Shown here: positions 41,503 through 64,000 of the stretch, piece by piece
How positions within the stretch are numbered: position 1 is the stretch's first letter
How the letters are laid out: the number at the start of each line of letters is the position of its first letter
Sequence record: OM632669.1
Source of the DNA: Escherichia phage BEU42
Strand: one strand, 5' to 3'
DNA length: 64,000 nucleotides
Notes under the pieces: generated by a model
The model's input: the letters and a program-made list of their open reading frames with translations, nothing else
Databases searched by the model: none
What the model was told of the DNA's origin: nothing
Program-made: the position numbers and the translations under genes

Positions 41503-44058
41503 TTACGTATCTAAATCAAGCTGCAACGTTATATCTGCAAAGTTGGTAATCATGTTGTTAGACATGTCAGCTATATCATGACCAGTCATAAGAGTACGGT
41601 TAAGGAATGAATCCAATGGCTCAAATTGTTGGCCTACATTAGTTAGGTTCATTGGGTCAATGTAACCCATGCCCTCAGTGCCAAACATTTCCTCGTACTT
41701 TTCCTGAATGGTTTTCATCTGGTCACGGTACTCTGCCATAAGTTTCTCTGTCTTTTTGACAGTTTCCATAGCAGAAGCATTGATGTAATCACTTATGCCA
41801 TTTCCTACAGATGAAGTGAGTTTAATGATGTTATCTGCTTTCATCATTTCACCCAGCATCGTAGACATGGATGAACCAGTGGATAAAGCTGTACCAACAT
41901 TCATGGCTACCATAGAGGCAATGGTAGCAACAATGATTCCAATCTTATCCCCAAGCAGACTAACAGAGACTGTTTGAATAATGGACATCAGAATCATAGC
42001 TGCAATGGCATTAGCCACAGCCCCAACGATAATAGCAGCTAACCCTGCAAAACCTAATGCAGCACCAATAGAAGCAGCAGTACCCATTACCCCAGCACCA
42101 GCAGCAGGAGTAAAGAACACAGACACTACTACTGCAACAACAACCACTACTACTTTAAAGATGCCAGACTGATACCATTTCTTCTTAACTTTCTTATATG
42201 AGTTAAGAACCAGATAACAACATGCAGTAGATAACTGAGTACCATTTACCAAAGACATACTACGATAAATGTTGTTATGAAGAGGGATGATAAATCCGGA
42301 CTCTTCATCATCATTTAGTGCATCTACACCAGAAATGCTTACAGATTTATTCTTGTAAACATTATTGTTATGGTTCAGGCCATAGACAGAAATCTTCCTC
42401 CATGAATTATCCCCATCCTGCCAATACATTGTTATCTTATCTAGCCTGTAGATATTAAACCCAACTTTGTCATTACCCTTTTCAGAGTACATAACGGCTT
42501 TCTGCATAAGGACTACAGTACCTTCATAAGCAAACTTGAGCTGCCCTTTCTTGGCTCCAGAGAATGCTTTTCCCGAACCAACTGACTCTTCAATGAAGTT
42601 CCAACTAATAGTCATGTTGTAACGGTATCCACCGTTAGAACGAATATTAATGGATTTAGAAGGTATTGTTGGATATACGGGTCTTTTAGGGGGTTTCCCT
42701 ATGGGAATATCCCTATTACCACTACGAGATTTCCACCATTCCTGGTAGGCATCAAAGTCCCTGTTAGCCTGAGCAAAGCCTTCTACCAAAGCATCCATAG
42801 TTGGGTAGTTTGGGTCAGCAGGCATTGACTGATTCACTAACTGGAAGAACCTGTATATAATGTCAGAAATCTTACCCCCTGTAGCCTTCTTAAAGGCTTT
42901 CTTACAAAGAGTATATGTAGAACCAGAAATCCAGTTCTTATCACTACGGATAGGGATGAATGAATAGAATCTGTTATTGGTTGTTTTATTAATAAACAAA
43001 GCATCAAGAACAGCATTACCACTATTCTGTTTATAAATAAACAGTTGAGGCATACCACCAGCAGACAGAGTAGTAACTACATCTGTATTCTGATAAGACC
43101 ATGTATAACCTAAAGTATCTGTAGTTACTGTAGTAGTTCTGGTTTCAGTAACCCCACCACCTAAATCAATAACTTCAGTGTTTGTAGTGGAACCAGTAGA
43201 TACAGTACCAGTCTGTACCTGGGTCATTGTAGTCTTACGAATAATGATTAAGCCTACTTCACTTGGTTCACGAAATTCTTTCTCGTAAACATCTGAGAAG
43301 TTAGTCCAACTAACCTGTTCTTCTTCAGTATTGGTACTTTCCTCATCAGGTCTACCATCAGAGAATACACTCTTAATATGAGTAACTGTCTTCAGAGTAG
43401 CTGACTTAGGGGTATGGTTCTGAGATACCTGAGTCCATTCAGAAGTAGAAGGTAAGTCATCAGCAGATGATACAGATACAACAGGATGAACCACTGGGTC
43501 TGCAACACTAGTAGGCTGTATGTAGTAATAATTCACATACAGATACATTGCATCCTGACTGTAATTCTTTGGATAAAAGGATAACTCACTACCATCAGTA
43601 GCAGTGAGTACAATCCTGTCATCATCCATGATGTCTATTTCAAACTCTTCAGTAATACGGTCTGGATAATTCTCATAGAGGAATTTATCAGCCCATTCCT
43701 CAAAATCACCAAATCCAATCCTACTGCTCTGAACCTGTACCTCATAACCTGCTTTTTGAGGAACTTGCCATTTAACTACTTCAGGGTCTATCTGAGACAG
43801 TACTGACAAGTTCCCATAAGCAATACCAATTGAAGGGTCATAGTTAGTTGCAGCCCAACCAGGGAATCTACGTAAACGAATACCAGGTCCATTTAAATAA
43901 GAGTCAGTGATGGTATCACCCATACTAAAGTCAGATTTACTGACGATGTTACCAATCACCGTAGTCTTTAAATAATTTGGACGTTTATGTATATCCCCTG
44001 CCAAATTGTAGACAGAGGATGCTACGTAGATTTTAGTCTTACTGCTAAACAGTCCCAT
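41503..44058 (-). CDS. large virion protein with C-terminal cluster of transmembrane helices (ejection/channel protein candidate)
   Basis: 851 aa; hydrophobic run VVVVVAVVVSVFFTPAAGAGVMGTAASIGAALGFAGLAAIIVGAVANAIAAMILMSII... Confidence 0.45.
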   Translation of the reverse strand: MGLFSSKTKIYVASSVYNLAGDIHKRPNYLKTTVIGNIVSKSDFSMGDTITDSYLNGPGIRLRRFPGWAATNYDPSIGIAYGNLSVLSQIDPEVVKWQVPQKAGYEVQVQSSRIGFGDFEEWADKFLYENYPDRITEEFEIDIMDDDRIVLTATDGSELSFYPKNYSQDAMYLYVNYYYIQPTSVADPVVHPVVSVSSADDLPSTSEWTQVSQNHTPKSATLKTVTHIKSVFSDGRPDEESTNTEEEQVSWTNFSDVYEKEFREPSEVGLIIIRKTTMTQVQTGTVSTGSTTNTEVIDLGGGVTETRTTTVTTDTLGYTWSYQNTDVVTTLSAGGMPQLFIYKQNSGNAVLDALFINKTTNNRFYSFIPIRSDKNWISGSTYTLCKKAFKKATGGKISDIIYRFFQLVNQSMPADPNYPTMDALVEGFAQANRDFDAYQEWWKSRSGNRDIPIGKPPKRPVYPTIPSKSINIRSNGGYRYNMTISWNFIEESVGSGKAFSGAKKGQLKFAYEGTVVLMQKAVMYSEKGNDKVGFNIYRLDKITMYWQDGDNSWRKISVYGLNHNNNVYKNKSVSISGVDALNDDEESGFIIPLHNNIYRSMSLVNGTQLSTACCYLVLNSYKKVKKKWYQSGIFKVVVVVVAVVVSVFFTPAAGAGVMGTAASIGAALGFAGLAAIIVGAVANAIAAMILMSIIQTVSVSLLGDKIGIIVATIASMVAMNVGTALSTGSSMSTMLGEMMKADNIIKLTSSVGNGISDYINASAMETVKKTEKLMAEYRDQMKTIQEKYEEMFGTEGMGYIDPMNLTNVGQQFEPLDSFLNRTLMTGHDIADMSNNMITNFADITLQLDLDT

Positions 44059-44061
44059 GTA

Positions 44062-44970
<909 letters not shown>

Positions 44971-44980
44971 TCATTGGTTC

Positions 44981-45020
44981 ATTAAAAGAAAACGGCTCAC
45001 GGTTTTACCCAGTGAGCCGT
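44981..45020 (-). terminator. rho-independent terminator candidate (minus strand)
   Basis: 9-bp stem acggctcac/gtgagccgt with 11-nt loop; on minus strand followed by TTTTCTTTT. Confidence 0.45.
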
Positions 45021-45040
45021 GCTGACTTACAGATTAACTC

Positions 45041-45667
45041 TTATTGAGAGTCTACGCTACCAGCAGCAATCTGAGCAGCAGCCAGAGTTTGTAATTCTTC
45101 CTTAGTCAGTGGAGGCAGAACTTCAATGGCAAACTCACGTACCCATGCAGACGTAATATTAGGCTGACCATTCTTACCTTTGGTAACTCGAATGTTCAGG
45201 AACTTACGTTCTTTGAGGAAATTATAAATACAGTAAGGGATGTGATAGCCCTCATCAGTAGCTTCACCAAATGGAACGAATTTACGAACAGTACCAATAT
45301 ATTCGTTAGCTACTGTAATAATCTCACCAGGCAGGTCTTTCTTCTTAGGGTCAAGGTTCTGAATACGTACTCGAACCAGCTTTAATTGTTCTAAGCGTTG
45401 CTGGTGACGTAAAGAAGTTGCCGTAGTTACTGTACCTGTAGACAGAGCCAGAGGATTAGGCTGAGGTTCTACTGGTTCCTGAGCTTTATTTTCCTGTGCT
45501 GCTTCAATCTTCTTACGAAGAGTTTCAGCACTAATATTATTTGAGTATGAAATACCCATCATATTAGCTCGTTGTTTCAGCAGAGAAAGTTCATCAACCT
45601 TAACTTCATCAACGGTGTCATCGTTGCCCTGAGTTAAATCAGCGGTCGGTTTATCGTTAATGCTCAT
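45041..45667 (-). CDS. hypothetical structural-module protein
   Basis: 208 aa. Confidence 0.4.
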   Translation of the reverse strand: MSINDKPTADLTQGNDDTVDEVKVDELSLLKQRANMMGISYSNNISAETLRKKIEAAQENKAQEPVEPQPNPLALSTGTVTTATSLRHQQRLEQLKLVRVRIQNLDPKKKDLPGEIITVANEYIGTVRKFVPFGEATDEGYHIPYCIYNFLKERKFLNIRVTKGKNGQPNITSAWVREFAIEVLPPLTKEELQTLAAAQIAAGSVDSQ

Positions 45668-45681
45668 GTGTATATATCCTA

Positions 45682-45711
45682 TTCATAAAGTAAGGGGAGG
45701 TTTCCCTCCCC
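45682..45711 (-). terminator. hairpin/attenuator downstream of major capsid gene (minus strand)
   Basis: 7-bp stem ggggagg/cctcccc; on minus strand followed by TTACTTTAT. Confidence 0.4.
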
Positions 45712-45729
45712 CTGATGTTAGCCCAACTA

Positions 45730-46935
45730 TTACAGCGGAGCTACAGTTTTAATAAGAGCCAGACGTTCTGGACGTTTAACCAGAATACCGTAGTACCATT
45801 TGATGCTGGAGAAACCAGTTTCACCATATGGGTCATTACGGTCAGCAGTTTCTTTACCAGGCATCTTAGTCATAACGGTAAATTTAAGTGACTTACCATC
45901 AGTCTGGAAGCCAATAGAGGTAAAGGAATCATCACCTACTACCAGCATTGGGTAAACGTCATAGTGCTCCTGACCAGATACCATAGAGGTACGGTAACCA
46001 GGGTTAGCTCCAGTAGCCTGTGCACCAGCACCTGCCCAGTGCAGCATCTCCGGAACCTGAATGATACGGAACTTATCAATAGAACCGACTTCACCATTCA
46101 TGATAGTACCTGCATCAGCATAGTGCTGAGTTTCGATAAAGGCTTTATTACCGAACAAGTCTCTCATTGCTTTCAGTTCTGGAACCAGTTCAGAACCTAC
46201 ATACATAACACGAGTAGCACCGATGACTTTAGTATCAATCATACGGGAACCAGTGATGATGGTAGTCTGAGTAGGAGTACGGTTCTCTGTCAGAATCTGG
46301 TCAAGACGCATCAGGTTCTTATAAGAAACGATAGACGGAGTAGAACCTTCACCAGTGATGGTGGCATCAGAAGTAGCAGCACCAGCATACAGAACAGTAC
46401 CAGCAGCAGCCAGCAAGTCTTTTTGCAGTACAGCTTCAGTAATCTGAGTAGCACCATTCATCAGTTCACGGGACAGGTGTTCCATCAGGCCATCGTCAGA
46501 ATCGAAATCAATAGATTCCTGAGTGAACTCATAGAAGAAGCCAAACTTGTGAATAGAACCTTCACGAGCAATACGAGTAAAACCAACACGGTTAACTCGA
46601 CCGCCGTTTTCAGTCAGTAGAGGCAATTTGGAAGTAATGTTACCGATGTCTTTGCTGGAACCATACAGGTTACCGTTAACGATGGTAGCACCACTTGCAT
46701 CAATACCCTGGTCATTGATGTTACGGTCATCCAGCAGAGGAACATATTCATATACCTTGATGGTCTTACCGTAATGCTTCGGCATGTTAGTTACAGAGGC
46801 CAGTGGCATGAAGTACTGCTCTTTACGGGCAGTGATGATTGCTTTCTTCAGCCAGAAGAAGGTTTGCATCTGGTCAGAGTTAGCACCATCAATACTAGAT
46901 TTCTGACCGTCAGTAGGAGCGTTATAGTTCAACAT
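45730..46935 (-). CDS. major capsid protein candidate
   Basis: 401 aa; sits between scaffold-like and portal-side genes; size matches N4-type capsid protein; strong terminal hairpin downstream. Confidence 0.55.
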
Positions 46936-46946
46936 GTCTCAATTCC

Positions 46947-48164
46947 TTATAGGCCGTTCAGCCGAGGTAGTTTCATAAAGTCCTCGTCACTCATTGCAAG
47001 AGGATTAACAAGGACTTCTGTCTTACGCGGTGTAACCCGTGATGGGGATGCCGCTGCTGCCTGTTGAGTATTAGTGATTTCAGACTTAGGAGTTGCAACA
47101 CGAGTTGCTACTGGCTGAACCACTGGTTTAGGTTGTTCAACAGGTTTCTGCTTAATCAAATCATTAAAACCACCATTAGCAGCAAGGTAGTTACCGACTT
47201 GATTATAAGCATCCAGGAATGCTGTACCGATTGGGATTTGGCCTAAGATTTTGAGTCGTTCAATTTCAGAAACAATACGGTCGTAAATACCGTTAGCTTT
47301 CTGTTCAACGATGGTATTAACCAGACCACGATTTTCCAGCAATGCCTGTTTGCTGTGGTCATCCCACGTAGTCGAAATTAACTGAAGAGTAGCTTGTCCT
47401 TCTGGAGTGGATTTAGCATCTTCCAGTTCGGTTGCAAATGCTGCTTCAGCATCTGACACACGGTGATTACCAGCTTGGTATTTAACTTCCTCTTCCGGAT
47501 TAATATCCAGAACATCAATACCAGATTCTTTAACCAACTTCTTAATAGCATCAGGATTCCCTTTAACTAAATCGATAGCATAAGAGAGTTGCCCTTCATC
47601 TAATAATCCGTTGTTTTCTAACATCAGGAGATACTTACGATACGGCTGAATCTCCTGCATTTTACGGGTATAGTTAGCTCCCATTTGCATCAGGCTAATG
47701 ACCTCTTCAGGACTTTGAGGAGTAATCATTTTGCCGTTAGCTTTAAACGGAGCCATTATCCGTTCATAACCAGCCTTATAGTCGAAGTCAGTTTTCTGGT
47801 CTGATACCTGCTTGTCTTCTTCTACTTTTGCTTGGCCTTGCTCAGTAGTAGAAGGTGCATTATCAGTAGCAGGCTTACTGTTGCTGTCAACCTTATTTGG
47901 GTCAACTGTAGCACTATCATTACCAGTTGTGAATGCATCTGAATTGCTTTCTGATTCAGAAGTATTTTCTACTTCAGTTGGTTCAGTAGTTACTTCTGGT
48001 TCATCAGTTTGTTCAACTTCAACAATTGGGTCTGGTTGTGCAGGAGTATTATTTTCTACCGGTTCCGGGTTGTTCTGAATGCTTGATGGACCAGGCATGT
48101 TCAGAATCTCTTCATCCGACATTTTAAAAATGTCGGAAGCTGTTTTTGCAGCTTCCGTAGTCAT
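46947..48164 (-). CDS. scaffolding-like protein candidate
   Basis: 405 aa; acidic, low-complexity N-terminal half; immediately upstream of capsid gene. Confidence 0.3.
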   Translation of the reverse strand: MTTEAAKTASDIFKMSDEEILNMPGPSSIQNNPEPVENNTPAQPDPIVEVEQTDEPEVTTEPTEVENTSESESNSDAFTTGNDSATVDPNKVDSNSKPATDNAPSTTEQGQAKVEEDKQVSDQKTDFDYKAGYERIMAPFKANGKMITPQSPEEVISLMQMGANYTRKMQEIQPYRKYLLMLENNGLLDEGQLSYAIDLVKGNPDAIKKLVKESGIDVLDINPEEEVKYQAGNHRVSDAEAAFATELEDAKSTPEGQATLQLISTTWDDHSKQALLENRGLVNTIVEQKANGIYDRIVSEIERLKILGQIPIGTAFLDAYNQVGNYLAANGGFNDLIKQKPVEQPKPVVQPVATRVATPKSEITNTQQAAAASPSRVTPRKTEVLVNPLAMSDEDFMKLPRLNGL

Positions 48165-48189
48165 GGGAGTATCTCCGAGTTAGGATTAA

Positions 48190-48537
48190 TTAAACTTCTT
48201 CAGGTTCACCACGAGCAACATCCAATGCATTCTCAATATCTGATTGGACACCTACCAGTGTTTCTGCTTTCTGAAGAGTAATTTCCAGATAACGTTTTAA
48301 ACAACCAGCAGCTTGAGCCATAGCAAGAGCATCAGCACGTTGACGGTCTTCAAGTAATGGGTCACAGGATTCTTGTACATAACGAGCACAGTCTACAGTA
48401 CAGAATTGCTCAAGAATTACTTTACGGAAAAGGGAATTACCCATCAGCTTACGAACATCTTCTGCATAAGCACGAGCAGCTTTAATACCCTTCAGTTGGT
48501 GTTCCAGTCCTTCAATTTCTTTTTCTTTGCTGTACAT
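48190..48537 (-). CDS. hypothetical protein
   Basis: 115 aa. Confidence 0.4.
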   Translation of the reverse strand: MYSKEKEIEGLEHQLKGIKAARAYAEDVRKLMGNSLFRKVILEQFCTVDCARYVQESCDPLLEDRQRADALAMAQAAGCLKRYLEITLQKAETLVGVQSDIENALDVARGEPEEV

Positions 48538-48539
48538 AA

Positions 48540-51323
<2,784 letters not shown>

Positions 51324-51343
<20 letters not shown>

Positions 51344-51950
51344 TACACCTCTCCAGAGGGACATTACCAATACGGTTAGCAATCCATCCTGTAGTGTACT
51401 CAGGCATATTAAGAGATAAATAGTAGTTTAACTGTTTACCATCCAGAGACTTCAAAATGAGCTTACAGGCTTCTACTTTGCCTCGTTTATTCTGAAGGCT
51501 CTTATATGCACTTAGAGTTCCAGAACCGACTTTACCATCAACTTGTATTTTAGGGTAGTCTTTGCCATTTCTGGAGAAAGCATTAAGAGATTCTTGTAAC
51601 CAACGAGATGGTCTTGCAGGTCCAGTATTAACACCAGCATCTACTAGTTTTTCTGTTACCGCCGGTGATACATCTGCAAACTTAACAAAGCCAGGCTTCA
51701 AGATGTAATCGTTGTAATAAATACTTGATGCCATTTCCTGAGTTAAGTTCTTCATTGAACCATCCCAGTTATACATCGACTCTAGTTCTTGCTTATGCTT
51801 TTGAGCAACCTGAATAGTTACACCATGATTAGTTTCACCTCCTGGGTCTTTGGGGTCATTAACGTATCCACCCTCAACAGCAAATACAGCAGCAATGATT
51901 GCTGCAATAACTCCTCCAACACCACCAACTTTCTTCTTACTTATTGCCAC
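51324..51950 (-). CDS. GH108-family lysozyme (N-acetylmuramidase-type endolysin) with N-terminal hydrophobic Gly/Ala-rich segment
   Basis: EGGYVNDPKDPGGETNHGVT matches GH108 signature; GTG start with AAGGAGG 6 nt upstream; residues 8-25 VGGVGGVIAAIIAAVFAV look SAR-like. Confidence 0.7.
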
Positions 51951-52200
51951 ACCAATCCTCCTTTGGTTTCAAACGAACCAGTCGGCAAATAATATTCAGC
52001 ACAAAGAGTGCTATAGCAATGTTATTGCCATGTGGAATATCTTTGAGGATATGTTGGGGTAATGCAGAGAAAGAACTGGATAAGGCATCCACACAAGAGA
52101 AGAACAATATTGCTAATGTGCTAATCTGAATAGATGCCCATTTCCAACAACGTTTCCAATTAGGAACCATTTCCACATGTTTGGTTAACTTGCGAACCAT
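51937..52200 (-). CDS. holin-like protein (2 TM)
   Basis: ATG at 52200 with GGGAGA 7 nt upstream; two hydrophobic helices; directly upstream of endolysin. Confidence 0.35.
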   Translation of the reverse strand: MVRKLTKHVEMVPNWKRCWKWASIQISTLAILFFSCVDALSSSFSALPQHILKDIPHGNNIAIALFVLNIICRLVRLKPKEDWCGNK

Positions 52201-52517
52201 GCAAAAATCTCCCGTCTGGCAGCAGCCAGTATACCAATAATGATACCTGCTCCAGCCCATACCCATTTACCAAACAATCCAGCACCAACAACTTTATGTT
52301 TGATGGTAATGAACTCTTCAATAGTAGGGGCAGACTCAGCCAGAGACTTTTCTACATTCTCCAGTCGAGTGTCCATCTTATTAATAGACAGTTGAAGGTT
52401 ACGTACAGCATCATCTAAATCTTGCCGAGATTTAGCATCACGGGCATTATTTTCGAAGAGTGTCTTCATACGTTCCTCCATTCGAGCTAGGAGCACCTCT
52501 ACGGATTCATGACTCAT
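52185..52517 (-). CDS. membrane-anchored coiled-coil protein (lysis regulator candidate)
   Basis: 110 aa; N-terminal helical region, C-terminal TM VVGAGLFGKWVWAGAGIIIGILAAA. Confidence 0.35.
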   Translation of the reverse strand: MSHESVEVLLARMEERMKTLFENNARDAKSRQDLDDAVRNLQLSINKMDTRLENVEKSLAESAPTIEEFITIKHKVVGAGLFGKWVWAGAGIIIGILAAARREIFAWFAS

Positions 52518-52529
52518 GCTAAATCCTTA

Positions 52530-52554
52530 TTGAAAAAGCCGGGTATCCCCGGCT
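52530..52554 (-). terminator. rho-independent terminator (minus strand)
   Basis: 7-bp stem agccggg/cccggct; on minus strand followed by TTTTTC. Confidence 0.5.
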
Positions 52555-52620
52555 CTGTTAGTCCTAATGAACAGAGAGTGTGTTTATACACCCGTCAAAT
52601 AGTACCGATATTTACTAGTA

Positions 52621-53877
<1,257 letters not shown>

Positions 53878-53906
53878 TTAATACCCCCATTGCTGGGGGT
53901 TCCTTG

Positions 53907-60480
<6,574 letters not shown>

Positions 60481-62073
60481 TCACACAATATATGAAGAGA
60501 GTGGGTTAACACTTCCAGTATCATCACCATCATCCCACAATGGGTCACCTGATGTATTAACTGGAACCATACCTGCTTGTGGTTTCCACGGGTTCAGGTA
60601 GCCAAGCATTGAAATGGTATCAATACAGTCATCCTTACCTTTAAGACCATTGATAGTGGCTAAACGAATTTGCCCCATAAAGAGTGTCATGATTGGGCTA
60701 TCTTTCATCTCAGCAGGAAAATACATCTTACCAGCTTTGAACCAGGGAACCACGAGGTTAAACCTTGATAGCTTACTGGTTACAGGATGAATACCCGGTT
60801 GGCCTCCACGACTGGATGCAAAGTTAAAGAACACATTACGGTTAAGCATTTCCTTCTGAAGAAGAGAAATAAAACCACCTTGCTGTCCGGTAGTTTCTAC
60901 ACCAACTTGTTGTGGTTGGTATTCCTGAACCAGACGGAATAAGTCATCAAAGTTCTTATCCATAGTTTGACGGCAAGCAATACCATCTACCCAGAACCAG
61001 TCACCGTTAGAACCATATGCCCATACTGATATTACAGAGTAGTCAGATACCTGCTTCTCACTAGTAGCAAAGTCAGTAGTGATATAAAAGTTATAACAAG
61101 AACGTAGACGTAATAGCTGCGTACGGGAATACCATTTAATCTCTGAATCTTGAATCAGACGTTCATCTTCAGAGCTGATACGTAACATCAATTCCTGATA
61201 AAAGGATGCCAGCTTACCTGTCTTCAATGCCATCTGGTATTGGTCATTGATGTAGTCATAGGAGAAACGGTCTTCCCAAGCACCTTGAAATTCTTCTCGC
61301 GTACATGGGAATTTCTCACATACAGGCCATACGTTGACATCCCAAGCACCGGATTCAACTGCTTCAATAAGAATATCTTCCTTATTAAAGGGAGTACCAT
61401 TAAAGATTACCTTACGTCTTGTTGGGTCGAGAGCATGGTTCACACCCTTATATACCGTGTCTTTAATGGCTTCCATTGATGTACGTGAGCGAGCATCATC
61501 ATCACTAACTAAGTCATCCAGTACACACAGAACAGGACGTTTACCAAAAATCTTAGTACCGCGAAGACCCGTCTTAGCACCAAACATCTTCACACCAAGA
61601 CGGTGACCTTCAGCATTTACAAACTCAAGGTAGTTATCTGTGAAGGTAGCTTTAGGAATCCATTGTTGCAGGAATGGTGAATTGTTGTATCGAAACTCAA
61701 TGTTCTTACGGGCAGACTTAACACCGTTATCCATAGAGTCAGACACATAAATCATTCCTTCTACTTTACCCAAGCTAGGTAGATGCCCAAACACTGCTAA
61801 GAACAAAGTAAAGTATTCCATGAACAGAGTTGTCTTTGCTGCACCACGGAAACATAAGTTAGCAATGTACTGATTCTTACTGGTTATCTTATCCAGCATT
61901 TTTAAGTGAACAGGAGGGGTTTTGTTTGATTCCCCCTCCTTACCATTAACCAGCTTAATAAAGTTAGCAAAGGTCAGTGCAAACTCGGTTGGTATATACG
62001 TAGGGGTATTCAGAACGGAATAGTCCACTTGGTCTAGCCATTCATCCAACTCCTGTTTAATTAGTTCAGACAT
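60481..62073 (-). CDS. terminase large subunit
   Basis: ORF track start 62115; ATG at 62073 (MSELIKQ...) lies 4 nt after upstream stop with GAGGA upstream; Walker A-like FRGAAKTT, Walker B VLCVLDDL, acidic nuclease region. Confidence 0.65.
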   Translation of the reverse strand: MSELIKQELDEWLDQVDYSVLNTPTYIPTEFALTFANFIKLVNGKEGESNKTPPVHLKMLDKITSKNQYIANLCFRGAAKTTLFMEYFTLFLAVFGHLPSLGKVEGMIYVSDSMDNGVKSARKNIEFRYNNSPFLQQWIPKATFTDNYLEFVNAEGHRLGVKMFGAKTGLRGTKIFGKRPVLCVLDDLVSDDDARSRTSMEAIKDTVYKGVNHALDPTRRKVIFNGTPFNKEDILIEAVESGAWDVNVWPVCEKFPCTREEFQGAWEDRFSYDYINDQYQMALKTGKLASFYQELMLRISSEDERLIQDSEIKWYSRTQLLRLRSCYNFYITTDFATSEKQVSDYSVISVWAYGSNGDWFWVDGIACRQTMDKNFDDLFRLVQEYQPQQVGVETTGQQGGFISLLQKEMLNRNVFFNFASSRGGQPGIHPVTSKLSRFNLVVPWFKAGKMYFPAEMKDSPIMTLFMGQIRLATINGLKGKDDCIDTISMLGYLNPWKPQAGMVPVNTSGDPLWDDGDDTGSVNPLSSYIV

Positions 62074-62758
62074 CAATAATATCCTCGTCTTCTCGAACCA
62101 GTGTGGAACCTGCAATTACTTTAGTAGGTGTACCAGCTTCAATAGCTGCTTTCTGAGCTTCAGCCAACTGGGTTAGTGTATTCTTGAGTTCAGTCAATCC
62201 AGAGTTTTCTCTCAAATCCAGATTGATATTAGTAACAGCATCCTTCGGTTTCTGGAGGTGAGTAAGGATAGAGTTGGCAGCATCACACTGTACCTTCTCA
62301 CTGGTAGCATTCTTCATGAGCCATGCCTGATGGTTCAATGCTTCCTGAAACAAATCCTGATTAACAATCCATACTGGAATCAGTGATTGTTCCATAATGA
62401 GGTTTACTAACTTACCTCTATGGTAAGCAGATACATAAGCAGAGATGTCCTTCTCACTGGTTCCTCTTGCTACTAATTCAGCTTGTCTGTTGGGGAATGT
62501 TTTGAAATAAGCATCTTTGTTACTATACCCCATGTGTTTGTAAGTAACATATTGAACAGCATTAAGATAATCCTGGGTCTTAAACTTCCCATCCTTCATC
62601 ACCCCAGCATAAGTCACAAAGTTATTTCTAATTTGCTCTGCTGCTGTCTGGTCTTGGGTCACATTGTTAATCATGTTTACCAGTTGGTCAGTAACACTGC
62701 TTTTAAACTGGGGAGGCAATGCAGAAACAATGTCTTTCTTAGTCAGTAGTGTGCTCAT
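62066..62758 (-). CDS. first gene of late operon; small terminase candidate by position only
   Basis: 230 aa immediately upstream of large terminase; no motif recognised. Confidence 0.3.
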   Translation of the reverse strand: MSTLLTKKDIVSALPPQFKSSVTDQLVNMINNVTQDQTAAEQIRNNFVTYAGVMKDGKFKTQDYLNAVQYVTYKHMGYSNKDAYFKTFPNRQAELVARGTSEKDISAYVSAYHRGKLVNLIMEQSLIPVWIVNQDLFQEALNHQAWLMKNATSEKVQCDAANSILTHLQKPKDAVTNINLDLRENSGLTELKNTLTQLAEAQKAAIEAGTPTKVIAGSTLVREDEDIIDV

Positions 62759-62885
62759 AGTCTTCCTACAAATTATCTAGAGTGAAGAGGATTCTTTTCT
62801 TGGGGTTAGCACCCCTTGCAGAAACCTATACATAGATTTAGACTTTAGACTTTCTTTAGTCTCCTTACAATAGTAAGACAGAGAC

Positions 62886-63227
62886 ATGGGGAGCCTATTG
62901 CCCAAAGGAACCAGTAACATGAGGCTATTCTATAGTTTTGACGGTAATGACCAATGGAATGAGATAGACTTCAGTAAAATAGGTGGAGCTATCCCAGTTG
63001 GAGGGGCTATACCAGGTGACCATATCTTATGTCACGATGAGGAGTCTTTCCATTACATCTCAGGTATGATGTTAATCAATAACGTCACTGGGTTTACTGT
63101 CCATAAACCTGCACCAGTACGTGTCATTACCAAGCCTATCGAGGGTCTTGCATTCTTTACAAGAATACCTCAAAGTATCTCTATCAAACGACAGCGTGAC
63201 GCCATCGAGATGACCGTGGTTGCTTGA
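62886..63227 (+). CDS. hypothetical protein
   Basis: 113-aa ORF with ATG; weak RBS. Confidence 0.35.
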   Translation: MGSLLPKGTSNMRLFYSFDGNDQWNEIDFSKIGGAIPVGGAIPGDHILCHDEESFHYISGMMLINNVTGFTVHKPAPVRVITKPIEGLAFFTRIPQSISIKRQRDAIEMTVVA

Positions 63228-63390
63228 TAAGCCATTGCCCGCCCAGGAGTTGGTGGCGGGAAACAGGGAACTGTTTGAATAACCACTTCAGCTACATTCA
63301 CCTATCTCCAAGACACCTTTGTTATCTGCCATTGGGTGATGAGTAGTATCAGAGAGAACTGATTTAACAAACACACTCGGTATAGGAATT

Positions 63391-63416
63391 GGGAGCCATT
63401 TGGCTCCCTTTTTCTT
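63391..63416 (+). terminator. rho-independent terminator
   Basis: stem gggagcc/ggctccc then TTTTTCTTTT. Confidence 0.55.
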
Positions 63417-63437
63417 TTATGAACCAAGGAGTTCTAT

Positions 63438-63770
63438 ATGAACATTCGTCCTAATGAAGTCTATGGTATCAACCTAGAGTACACTACAAACAAACCTGCT
63501 CTATTTCACTGTGGTTCCACCAATCTATTCCATGCTATGTGTGGTAATACCAAACCTCTTTACTTACCTGAATCGGATGATACCCATGCTCTACTAGGTA
63601 ACTGGTTCTTAGAAGGTAAAGACATTAGTACCATTCTTCTTGAACCAAGGAAGAAAGTGGCAATACCTACTAATGCATGGAATAACGAAGTCATTTACTT
63701 CCTGGCACCAAAAGGCTTTGAACCAGTGGTAGAACAGAATCACTTTAATCATGCCCTTCTCTACAGATAA
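63438..63770 (+). CDS. hypothetical protein
   Basis: 110-aa ORF; AAGGAG 6-7 nt upstream of ATG. Confidence 0.45.
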   Translation: MNIRPNEVYGINLEYTTNKPALFHCGSTNLFHAMCGNTKPLYLPESDDTHALLGNWFLEGKDISTILLEPRKKVAIPTNAWNNEVIYFLAPKGFEPVVEQNHFNHALLYR

Positions 63771-63910
63771 TTTCCCTGAAGAACCTGATTATGTAATTTC
63801 ATTTATTTATGACTTACATGATGGCTCAGAACCAAGTGAATTGGCTATGAGTCAATGGAAATCCAGAAGACCTGTATATGCATTTCAGGTAGTTAAATCA
63901 AGGAGTTAAC

Positions 63911-64000
63911 TATGTTAGGTGATAACACTAATGCTCTGTTTGGGGTGTCAGCCAGACCTATTATCATTGTTAATAAACATCATGGTAAAAAGGGTGAATA
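63911..64000 (+). CDS. hypothetical protein, 5' fragment running off window end
   Basis: ATG at 63911 with AAGGAG upstream; open to window end. Confidence 0.3.

Follow-up and report, generated by a model that had tools for sequence, protein, structure and literature searches.

A probable back-to-back sigma-70-type promoter with a conserved leader between gp69 and gp70 of the N4-type phage BEU42

The window analysed, i.e., a stretch of 64,000 nucleotides (nt) of Escherichia phage BEU42 (sequence record OM632669.1), contains a short divergent intergenic region, first delimited at 62759-62885, between the leftward gene gp69 and the rightward gene gp70. The preferred reading, to which a probability of about 0.6 is given, is that this region is a compact back-to-back promoter of the sigma-70 type for the leftward late operon and for the rightward gp70 unit, a tandem repeat of TTTAGAC being the -10 core. 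The element is likely of an ordinary kind, i.e., a bidirectional promoter, and unusually conserved. Judged from its sequence, the window essentially represents coliphage N4: over 2 kb around the region it is 100% identical to Escherichia phages BEU5, BEU13, BEU14 and BEU44 and 98.4% identical to N4 (EF056009). Position 62000 corresponds to 68136 of the N4 record (70153 bp), and 62759-62885 to 68895-69021, which in N4 is the divergent gap separating gp69, on the minus strand, from gp70, on the plus strand; the record ends about 1.1 kb further to the right. The gap is unannotated in the N4 GenBank record, which has no regulatory annotation at this place.

Homologues of gp69 served as query and gave 80 IMG/VR loci, to which GenBank records were added; gp69 was taken instead of gp70 as the gp70 alignment is too divergent for a locus-finding query. 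Nineteen diverse Schitoviridae sequences were anchored on the core of the element, position 1 being 62839 of the window. The promoter-like elements are the following:

62837-62850, both strands: tandem repeat TTTAGAC x2, candidate -10 core common to both predicted promoters
62842-62847, minus strand: -10-like TAAAGT; TAnnnT in 19/19 relatives
62865-62870, minus strand: -35-like TTGTAA; CAA at this offset (position 30) in 16/19, against a background of at most 2 at other offsets
62759-62835, minus strand: predicted 5' leader of the late messenger RNA (mRNA), from a start at about 62835 placed 7 nt downstream of the -10
62816-62821, plus strand: -35-like TTGCAG; TTG at this exact offset in 10/19 relatives, with differing spacer sequences
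62839-62844, plus strand: -10-like TAGACT (hexamer 1), with a second copy (hexamer 2) at 62846-62851

The repeat, tagactt-tagactt-t, consists of the 7-nt unit TTTAGAC at 62837-62843 and again at 62844-62850; the original prediction had rightly seen a tandem repeat and had wrongly divided it into two 8-mers. There is also a third copy, CTTTAGTCT at 62854-62862, which is imperfect and includes the inverted AGTCT. Within one sequence a tandem repeat of 14 nt is short and unremarkable. Among the 19 sequences the core TAGACTTTAG is invariant or nearly so: T1, A2, A4, C5, T6, T8, A9, G10 and C12 are invariant, T7 is nearly invariant and positions 3 and 11 are variable. T1, A2 and T6 match TAnnnT on the plus strand (TAGACT), and A4, T8 and A9 match TAnnnT on the minus strand (TAAAGT). 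The hexamers of opposite strands overlap, i.e., 62839-62844 (plus), 62842-62847 (minus) and 62846-62851 (plus).

On the minus strand N4 reads TTGTAA-17-TAAAGT, and in 17/19 sequences TAAAGT is preceded by a TTG at a distance of 17 nt, or of 18 nt in one of them. The first late gene starts 30-85 nt beyond the core in all relatives, whatever this gene may be: gp69 in N4, KP8 and G7C, a gp49-like gene in inbricus, JWAlpha and Axy10, small open reading frames (ORFs) in phiAxp-3 and Philippe. This geometry gives strong comparative support to the original prediction, in which the gap was a candidate late promoter or regulatory site. In N4 it is the host sigma-70 polymerase, activated by N4SSB, that transcribes the late genes in the leftward direction (PMC4496689), and the mapped late promoters of LUZ7 resemble sigma-70 promoters (PMC9163698). 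The leftward element is comparable to these known late promoters: it points leftward at the head of the late region, its -10 and -35 are weak-to-moderate and sigma-70-like, and it would be of the host-polymerase type (PMC4496689, PMC9163698). It differs from the published accounts of N4 and LUZ7 late promoters, which mention neither conservation of a core across subfamilies nor an overlapping promoter on the opposite strand.

On the plus strand the sequence reads TTGCAG-17-TAGACT. A correctly spaced TTG precedes hexamer 1 in 10-11/19 sequences and hexamer 2 in 6/19; one or the other has it in 16/19. The offsets of TTG peak at -23 (10/19) and -16 (5/19), i.e., 17 nt from hexamer 1 or from hexamer 2. 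At other offsets the background is at most 2, except at -40 and -38, where the CTTGGGG of the Enquatrovirinae hairpin accounts for 4 each. The spacers between TTG and the hexamers share no sequence among the relatives. It is because a spacer of fixed length and free sequence separates conserved hexamers that these elements are read as sigma-70 promoters.

In the model derived from these alignments, promoter use, start sites, dependence on N4SSB and competition between the two directions are predicted from sequence. Leftward, the host RNA polymerase would bind TTGTAA and TAAAGT across the 17-nt spacer and produce the late mRNA from about 62835; in N4 this promoter would need activation by N4SSB, as other late promoters do. 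Rightward, the polymerase would use TTGCAG, a 17-nt spacer and TAGACT (62839-62844 or 62846-62851) and start at about 62851-62858. The rightward RNA would then carry a two-tier hairpin (62859-62885), a CCUAUUG box and gp70, and end at a terminator. Since the two -10 hexamers overlap, one polymerase would be accommodated at a time and the two transcription units would be coupled. In E. coli it is common for promoters of opposite direction to share a -10, and their start sites mostly lie 18, 10 or 23 bp from each other; they give divergent mRNAs and the binding of polymerase is mutually exclusive (PMC12825309). The present element resembles the bacterial cases (Warman et al. 2021; PMC12825309) in that opposite-strand TAnnnT motifs overlap in a short AT-rich core with a -35 on each side. 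It differs from those of PMC12825309, where 18, 10 and 23 bp are usual, in its predicted start sites, which would lie 16 bp apart with hexamer 1, and hexamer 2 with TAAAGT would give the 23-bp geometry; it differs further by the tandem duplication of the core, the lineages differing over the copy that has a correctly spaced -35.

Several points weigh against the two-way promoter: (i) the 16-bp separation obtained with hexamer 1 is outside the common classes; (ii) the hexamers are moderate matches to the consensus (about 7-8 of 12) and are unlisted by the promoter scan tool, whose best match in N4 is a different one, TTTAGA-16-TACAAT; (iii) the G7C-like phages and locus L084 have no minus-strand TTG; (iv) the invariant C5, G10 and C12 and a half-conserved TTTAG (positions 17-21) are unexplained by sigma-70 contacts, and the conservation of positions 33-75 requires a second explanation, i.e., an RNA leader; (v) the 19 sequences are related, and the counts given above overstate their independence; (vi) a search of the literature on N4 late and middle promoters, in which the original late-promoter papers were not covered, gave neither coordinates nor a start site for the region. 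The match TTTAGA-16-TACAAT is itself disfavoured as a promoter, being kept in 4/19 relatives only.

Two observations concern promoter-like sequences elsewhere in the window. A second match, TTGAAG-16-TAGACT, occurs on the minus strand at 50904-50931. A late ORF of 763 amino acids starts about 70-100 nt downstream of it (at 50831), and the match may be an internal late promoter with the same -10 hexamer. Over 44000-63999, matches to the sigma-70 consensus are depleted (23 vs. 46 +/- 6.7 expected from shuffles) and terminator-like sites are enriched (31 vs. 13 +/- 3.8 from shuffles).

The orientation of the core varies among lineages. A core of about 25 bp stands in clearly inverted orientation to the late operon in L088 (257-290, plus strand), L113 (75, plus strand) and L122 (2226, plus strand), with 20 of 23 bases identical to the N4 plus strand. 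In L087 (1821-1843, plus strand), L091 and L109 the core is inverted and the leader-side flanks have the N4 orientation. In L087, L088 and L122 a -10 hexamer is present on either side of the inverted core; in L087 it is TGaTAGAGT that faces the late operon and TTGTCT-17-TAAACT that faces the leader side. Inverted cores with promoter-like elements both ways would be less expected of a signal acting in one direction only than of a two-way core. Moreover, the hairpin and CCTATTG box of L087, which keep their orientation, suggest that core and leader are two separable modules.

A core tolerated in either orientation according to lineage also recalls binding-site cassettes, and TTTAGAC, TTTAGAC and TTTAGTC could be the half-sites of an operator at which a DNA-binding regulator of the phage or of the host would switch the divergent units. 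There are indeed two direct copies and a TTTAG box with the inverted AGTCT, spaced 7 and 10 nt from start to start, and C5, G10 and C12 are invariant without being needed by sigma-70. Nevertheless such an operator appears improbable: no candidate DNA-binding protein is at hand, a Pfam search having found no domains in gp69, gp70 and gp71; N4SSB is reported to activate late promoters without needing to bind DNA (PMC4496689); the third box is only half conserved; and an operator alone does not predict that TTG tracks at 17 nt on both sides, as it does around the proposed promoter core.

The conservation of the element extends beyond the core. In a megablast search with the 2 kb, one short segment alone, 62838-62912, matched beyond the genus of N4. 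It is 92% identical in Pseudomonas phage inbricus and Achromobacter phage Axy13, i.e., in a different subfamily, and more sensitive searches found the same block of about 75 nt at 79-86% in Klebsiella KP8-like phages and in Achromobacter phages JWAlpha/JWDelta, phiAxp-3 and Axy04/10/11/12/22/24. The block is without annotation in almost every record that carries it. The nucleotide identities to N4 are given below, the element being taken as the 74 nt of 62839-62912:

KP8: element 82%, gp69 77%, gp70 48%
inbricus: element 91%, gp69 66%, gp70 41%
JWAlpha: element 84%, gp69 61%, gp70 39%
phiAxp-3: element 79%, gp69 63%, gp70 42%
Axy10: element 69%, gp69 60%, gp70 42%
PhAPEC7 (G7C-like): element 43%, gp69 72%, gp70 47%

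In KP8, inbricus, JWAlpha, phiAxp-3 and Axy10 the identity of the element exceeds that of the flanking genes (60-77% for gp69 and 39-48% for gp70 at the nucleotide level). A lack of conservation among relatives would have spoken against the original prediction; the region is in fact more conserved than the genes on either side. The G7C-like phages have retained the core and the CCTATT box alone. It must be noticed that in 62838-62912 N4 is nearer to inbricus and Axy13 (92%, other subfamily) than to KP8 (85%, same subfamily), which could reflect an exchange of the segment between lineages, or the differences could be too few to tell.

When TTAGACTTTAG and GGAGCCTATTGCC were searched across the window, no second copy beyond chance was obtained; the element is single-copy, and a repeated, polymerase-specific promoter consensus was rejected since second copies are absent from the window. 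A pattern scan of IMG/VR with TTAGACTTTAG..CCTATTG gave 47 matches, of which 38 were due to chance, and the real ones were only already known phages. The element has no match in 5,426 E. coli genomes, and a host origin was rejected on this ground. The motif is also absent from the gp86/gp87 gap of LUZ7, a relative with experimental mapping.

The second part of the conserved block belongs to the predicted leader of gp70, which comprises, together with the end of the unit:

62859-62885, plus strand: two-tier hairpin GTCTC-CTTAC-AATA-GTAAG-ACA-GAGAC, obtained with RNAalifold, at the predicted 5' end of the gp70 transcript
62894-62900, plus strand: CCTATTG box of the gp70 leader, C-TATT being invariant across 13 diverse sequences; single copy in the window
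63391-63418, plus strand: intrinsic terminator, from the terminator scan and from the annotated terminator in phage Jura, which would close the promoter-leader-gp70 unit

In an alignment of 8 sequences, 98.6% of the cells of the hairpin are paired and 4 pairs show compensatory changes, values that were reached by 0-1 of 500 shuffles. The G.U pairs of the KP8-type, JWAlpha and Axy12 hairpins are valid in the plus sense only. L087 retains the hairpin with two further compensatory pairs (CTTCA/TGAAG vs. CTTAC/GTAAG). The fold of 62859-62885 has z = -3.3. A covariance model of hairpin plus box found three further convincing instances only (L079, L109 and L087), i.e., too few for covariation power. 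In relatives the CCTATTG box is often followed by a hairpin of variable sequence. A long-range pairing of the hairpin loop CAAUAG with CUAUUG was considered and dropped, as by eye it is broken in inbricus, Axy10, L084 and L094. Terminators equivalent to that of the window follow the gp70 homologue in JWAlpha and PhAPEC7. In L114, L115 and L084 no convincing ORF stands in the 190-300 nt that separate the element from a strong terminator downstream; L134 has, by eye, the same arrangement without convincing ORF, the terminator scan having covered the three former loci. These ORF-less units lie at 1798-2105 in L114, 1632-1843 in L115 and 2257-2573 in L084, all on the minus strand, and also in L134 and L087 (reverse strand).

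These data raise the question of whether the block is primarily a structured RNA, i.e., a leader that regulates gp70 in cis, or else the 5' domain of a small noncoding RNA, whose hairpin and CCUAUUG would bind a protein or an RNA and control expression or stability, the promoter-like hexamers being secondary or coincidental. The covarying hairpin with its strand-specific G.U pairs argues for it, as do a CCTATTG invariant at variable distance from the core, the L087 hairpin and box that keep their orientation while the core is inverted, the ORF-less terminated units and, between N4 and inbricus, an element at 91% identity beside gp70 genes at just 41%. On the other hand, Rfam gave no match overlapping 62759-62918 even at E <= 10 and none significant in ten related loci; the thermodynamics are weak (z = -1.3 for the gp70 leader, about -3 to +1 in relatives); and the covariation comes from 8 related sequences. 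Moreover, the bases that vary least (positions 1-12) would be upstream of or at the 5' end of the RNA, and TAnnnT accounts for them better than pairing. We hold an RNA without meaningful hexamers to be unlikely; a structured leader is compatible with the promoter model and would add to it, since the RNA must itself be transcribed from a promoter.

With the two-way promoter kept as the preferred reading, the RNA that it would produce rightward deserves a separate comment. The ORF-less units look like a small noncoding RNA in the place of the N4 gp70, which suggests that the leader RNA itself may matter. A tentative proposal, to which we give a rather low probability, is that the rightward unit represents a new Schitoviridae RNA family, whose hallmark would be the promoter-proximal two-tier hairpin plus the CCUAUUG box. 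Such an RNA may lead into gp70 in N4 and may be free-standing in L114, L115, L084 and L134, where it would be terminated after about 190-300 nt and devoid of ORF; transcribed from the overlapping promoter core that it would share with the late operon, it could regulate packaging or the middle-to-late switch, or be the ligand of some phage protein.

Stem-loops at the 5' end stabilise bacterial and phage mRNAs, e.g., in the ompA leader. The hairpins of the region are alike in that both would lie within the first 35 nt or so of their predicted transcripts and that the one at 62859-62885 is kept by compensatory changes. They are unlike ompA-type stem-loops in that sequence as well as pairing is highly conserved here and that an invariant CCUAUUG box follows. 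Conserved sequence and box together suggest a specific ligand rather than a generic protection of the 5' end.

The other hairpin stands on the opposite side of the core:

62802-62815: GC hairpin, stem GGGGT (62802-62806), loop TAGC (62807-62810) and stem ACCCC (62811-62815), adjoining the plus-strand -35

It is exactly as the original prediction had described it, with no T-tract; TTGCAG comes next. As an intrinsic terminator it was rejected, in the lack of a T-tract and of any report of the terminator scan at 62802-62815 on either strand, the nearest terminator-like site starting at 63391. Folded as DNA it is unremarkable (plus strand, z = -1.4; minus strand, z = -1.9). At the corresponding position a GGGG-loop-CCCC hairpin has been retained, with varying loops, in the Enquatrovirinae, G7C-like phages, L063 and L134, and is weakened in KP8; its stems never change sequence among relatives and give no covariation evidence. 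Judged on the sequences compared, repeat and GC hairpin alike are non-random through their conservation only, not within the single sequence. In the late-mRNA leader (62759-62835), whose predicted fold has z = -1.2, the GC hairpin would form a stem-loop at about +21 to +34.

The earlier suggestion that this hairpin might be an early promoter of N4 type could not be maintained. A promoter of the N4 virion RNA polymerase (vRNAP) has a stem of 5-7 bp and a 3-nt loop with a central purine (PMC4496689, PMC6027278); here the stem has 5 bp but the loop has 4 nt (TAGC). The promoters P1, GTTGCTTCGCAAC-TTATGGA (GTTGC-TTC-GCAAC), and P2, GAAGCTCCGCTTC-TTTTGGA (GAAGC-TCC-GCTTC), of N4 share 3-nt loops, GC(T/C)CGC-type centres and a TTxTGGA start region, whereas the hairpin of the window reads GGGGTTAGCACCCC-TTGCAGA, without the GC-rich heptamer and without TTxTGGA. 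The likeness to P1, P2 and P3 is limited to a short GC-containing DNA hairpin of 5 bp in an intergenic region of N4. The location is also different, i.e., at the right end of the genome instead of the left and inside a predicted host-polymerase transcription unit. The GC hairpin is a predicted leader stem-loop, not a hairpin promoter of N4 style.

More generally, one or both hairpins could be promoters for a phage polymerase, i.e., the N4 virion RNA polymerase or RNAPII recognising a DNA hairpin. Polymerases of the N4 family do use DNA hairpins, and in LUZ7 the middle promoters are hairpins that precede a G start by about 15 bp (PMC9163698). From the loop centre of 62859-62885 it is about 17 nt to a conserved GGGGA run, which starts at 62888, and LUZ7 transcribes the genes of its right end in the middle stage. 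However, neither hairpin has the 3-nt loop, the GC(T/C)CGC-type centre or the TTxTGGA of P1 and P2. The vRNAP promoters are restricted to the left 10% of the genome, and those of N4 RNAPII are AT-rich, extend from -7 to +2 and lie in the left half (PMC4496689), a location unmatched here. A polymerase-specific consensus would moreover be expected in more than the single copy present in the window, and LUZ7 itself lacks the motif. A phage-polymerase promoter is thus very improbable.

The position beside the packaging genes raises another possibility, namely a replication origin or a packaging (pac) site next to the terminase genes and near a genome end. The element is single-copy, highly conserved, noncoding and repeat-containing, it adjoins gp69/gp68, it tolerates either orientation, and the GC skew changes sign at the region. 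But the region has no AT-rich unwinding sequence (its GC content of 0.37-0.45 is like the genome average) and merely 2-3 short repeats, and the skew changes where the genes change direction, which is also the case at about 28 kb. Nor would an origin or a pac site predict the TTG-17-TAnnnT geometry on both strands. The original prediction had also allowed for a nearby genome end; as an explanation this is not supported, the physical end being about 1.1 kb away and the left-end sequence of N4 having no match inside the window. An origin or pac site has accordingly very little probability in our view, and the two-way promoter is retained.

The two genes flanking the gap are:

62066-62758, minus strand: gp69 homologue, first gene of the leftward late/packaging operon, 100% identical to N4-type phages and matching phrog_2109
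62919-63227, plus strand: gp70, 102 amino acids, according to the N4 annotation; of the function-unknown class (phrog_7213, unknown function)

The minus-strand ATG of gp69 is at 62758-62756, and in the N4 annotation the large terminase gp68 comes after gp69. The amino-acid identity among relatives is 62-86% for gp69 and 27-41% for gp70. An ORF from the ATG at 62886 exists mechanically and lengthens the gp70 ORF by 11 codons. As the start of gp70 this ATG was rejected: the N4 annotation places the start at the equivalent of 62919, the N-terminus M-R-(L/I/V)-F-Y is conserved from 62919 in six relatives, and the ATG at 62886 is not conserved, being absent from KP8 and JWAlpha and opening in inbricus an ORF of 9 codons followed by a stop. 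With the start of gp70 at 62919, the true intergenic gap is therefore 62759-62918 (160 nt). The gap of 127 nt first proposed was correct at its minus-strand boundary (62758) and had to be extended at the other, where 62886 is replaced by the conserved start.

Downstream of these genes, collinearity with N4 ends at 63754 (N4 69890). The last 246 nt of the window (63755-64000) are 100% identical to BEU51 and 78% identical to phage 'nithesis', and the C-terminus of gp71 and the gp72 region are therefore unlike N4. A scan for transfer RNA (tRNA) and tmRNA genes (ARAGORN) found nothing at the region; the only tRNA genes of the window are four (Asn, Ser, Thr and Pro), clustered at 26418-27096, just ahead of the point at which the late region begins on the minus strand.

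Three RNA polymerases act one after another in the large phage family for which N4 serves as the model. If the preferred reading is true, the late promoter at the head of the operon is narrowed to a few bases and is conserved from E. coli phages to phages of Achromobacter, Pseudomonas, Stenotrophomonas and Erwinia. It would give a consensus for the annotation of late promoters in hundreds of Schitoviridae genomes and a defined template for testing activation of the N4SSB type. Its overlap with a promoter on the opposite strand would suggest a built-in competition between the late operon and the small right-end unit. The conserved leader, i.e., hairpin plus CCUAUUG, marks an RNA element that is still unexplored. 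The conclusions on promoter and leader imply no change of paradigm.

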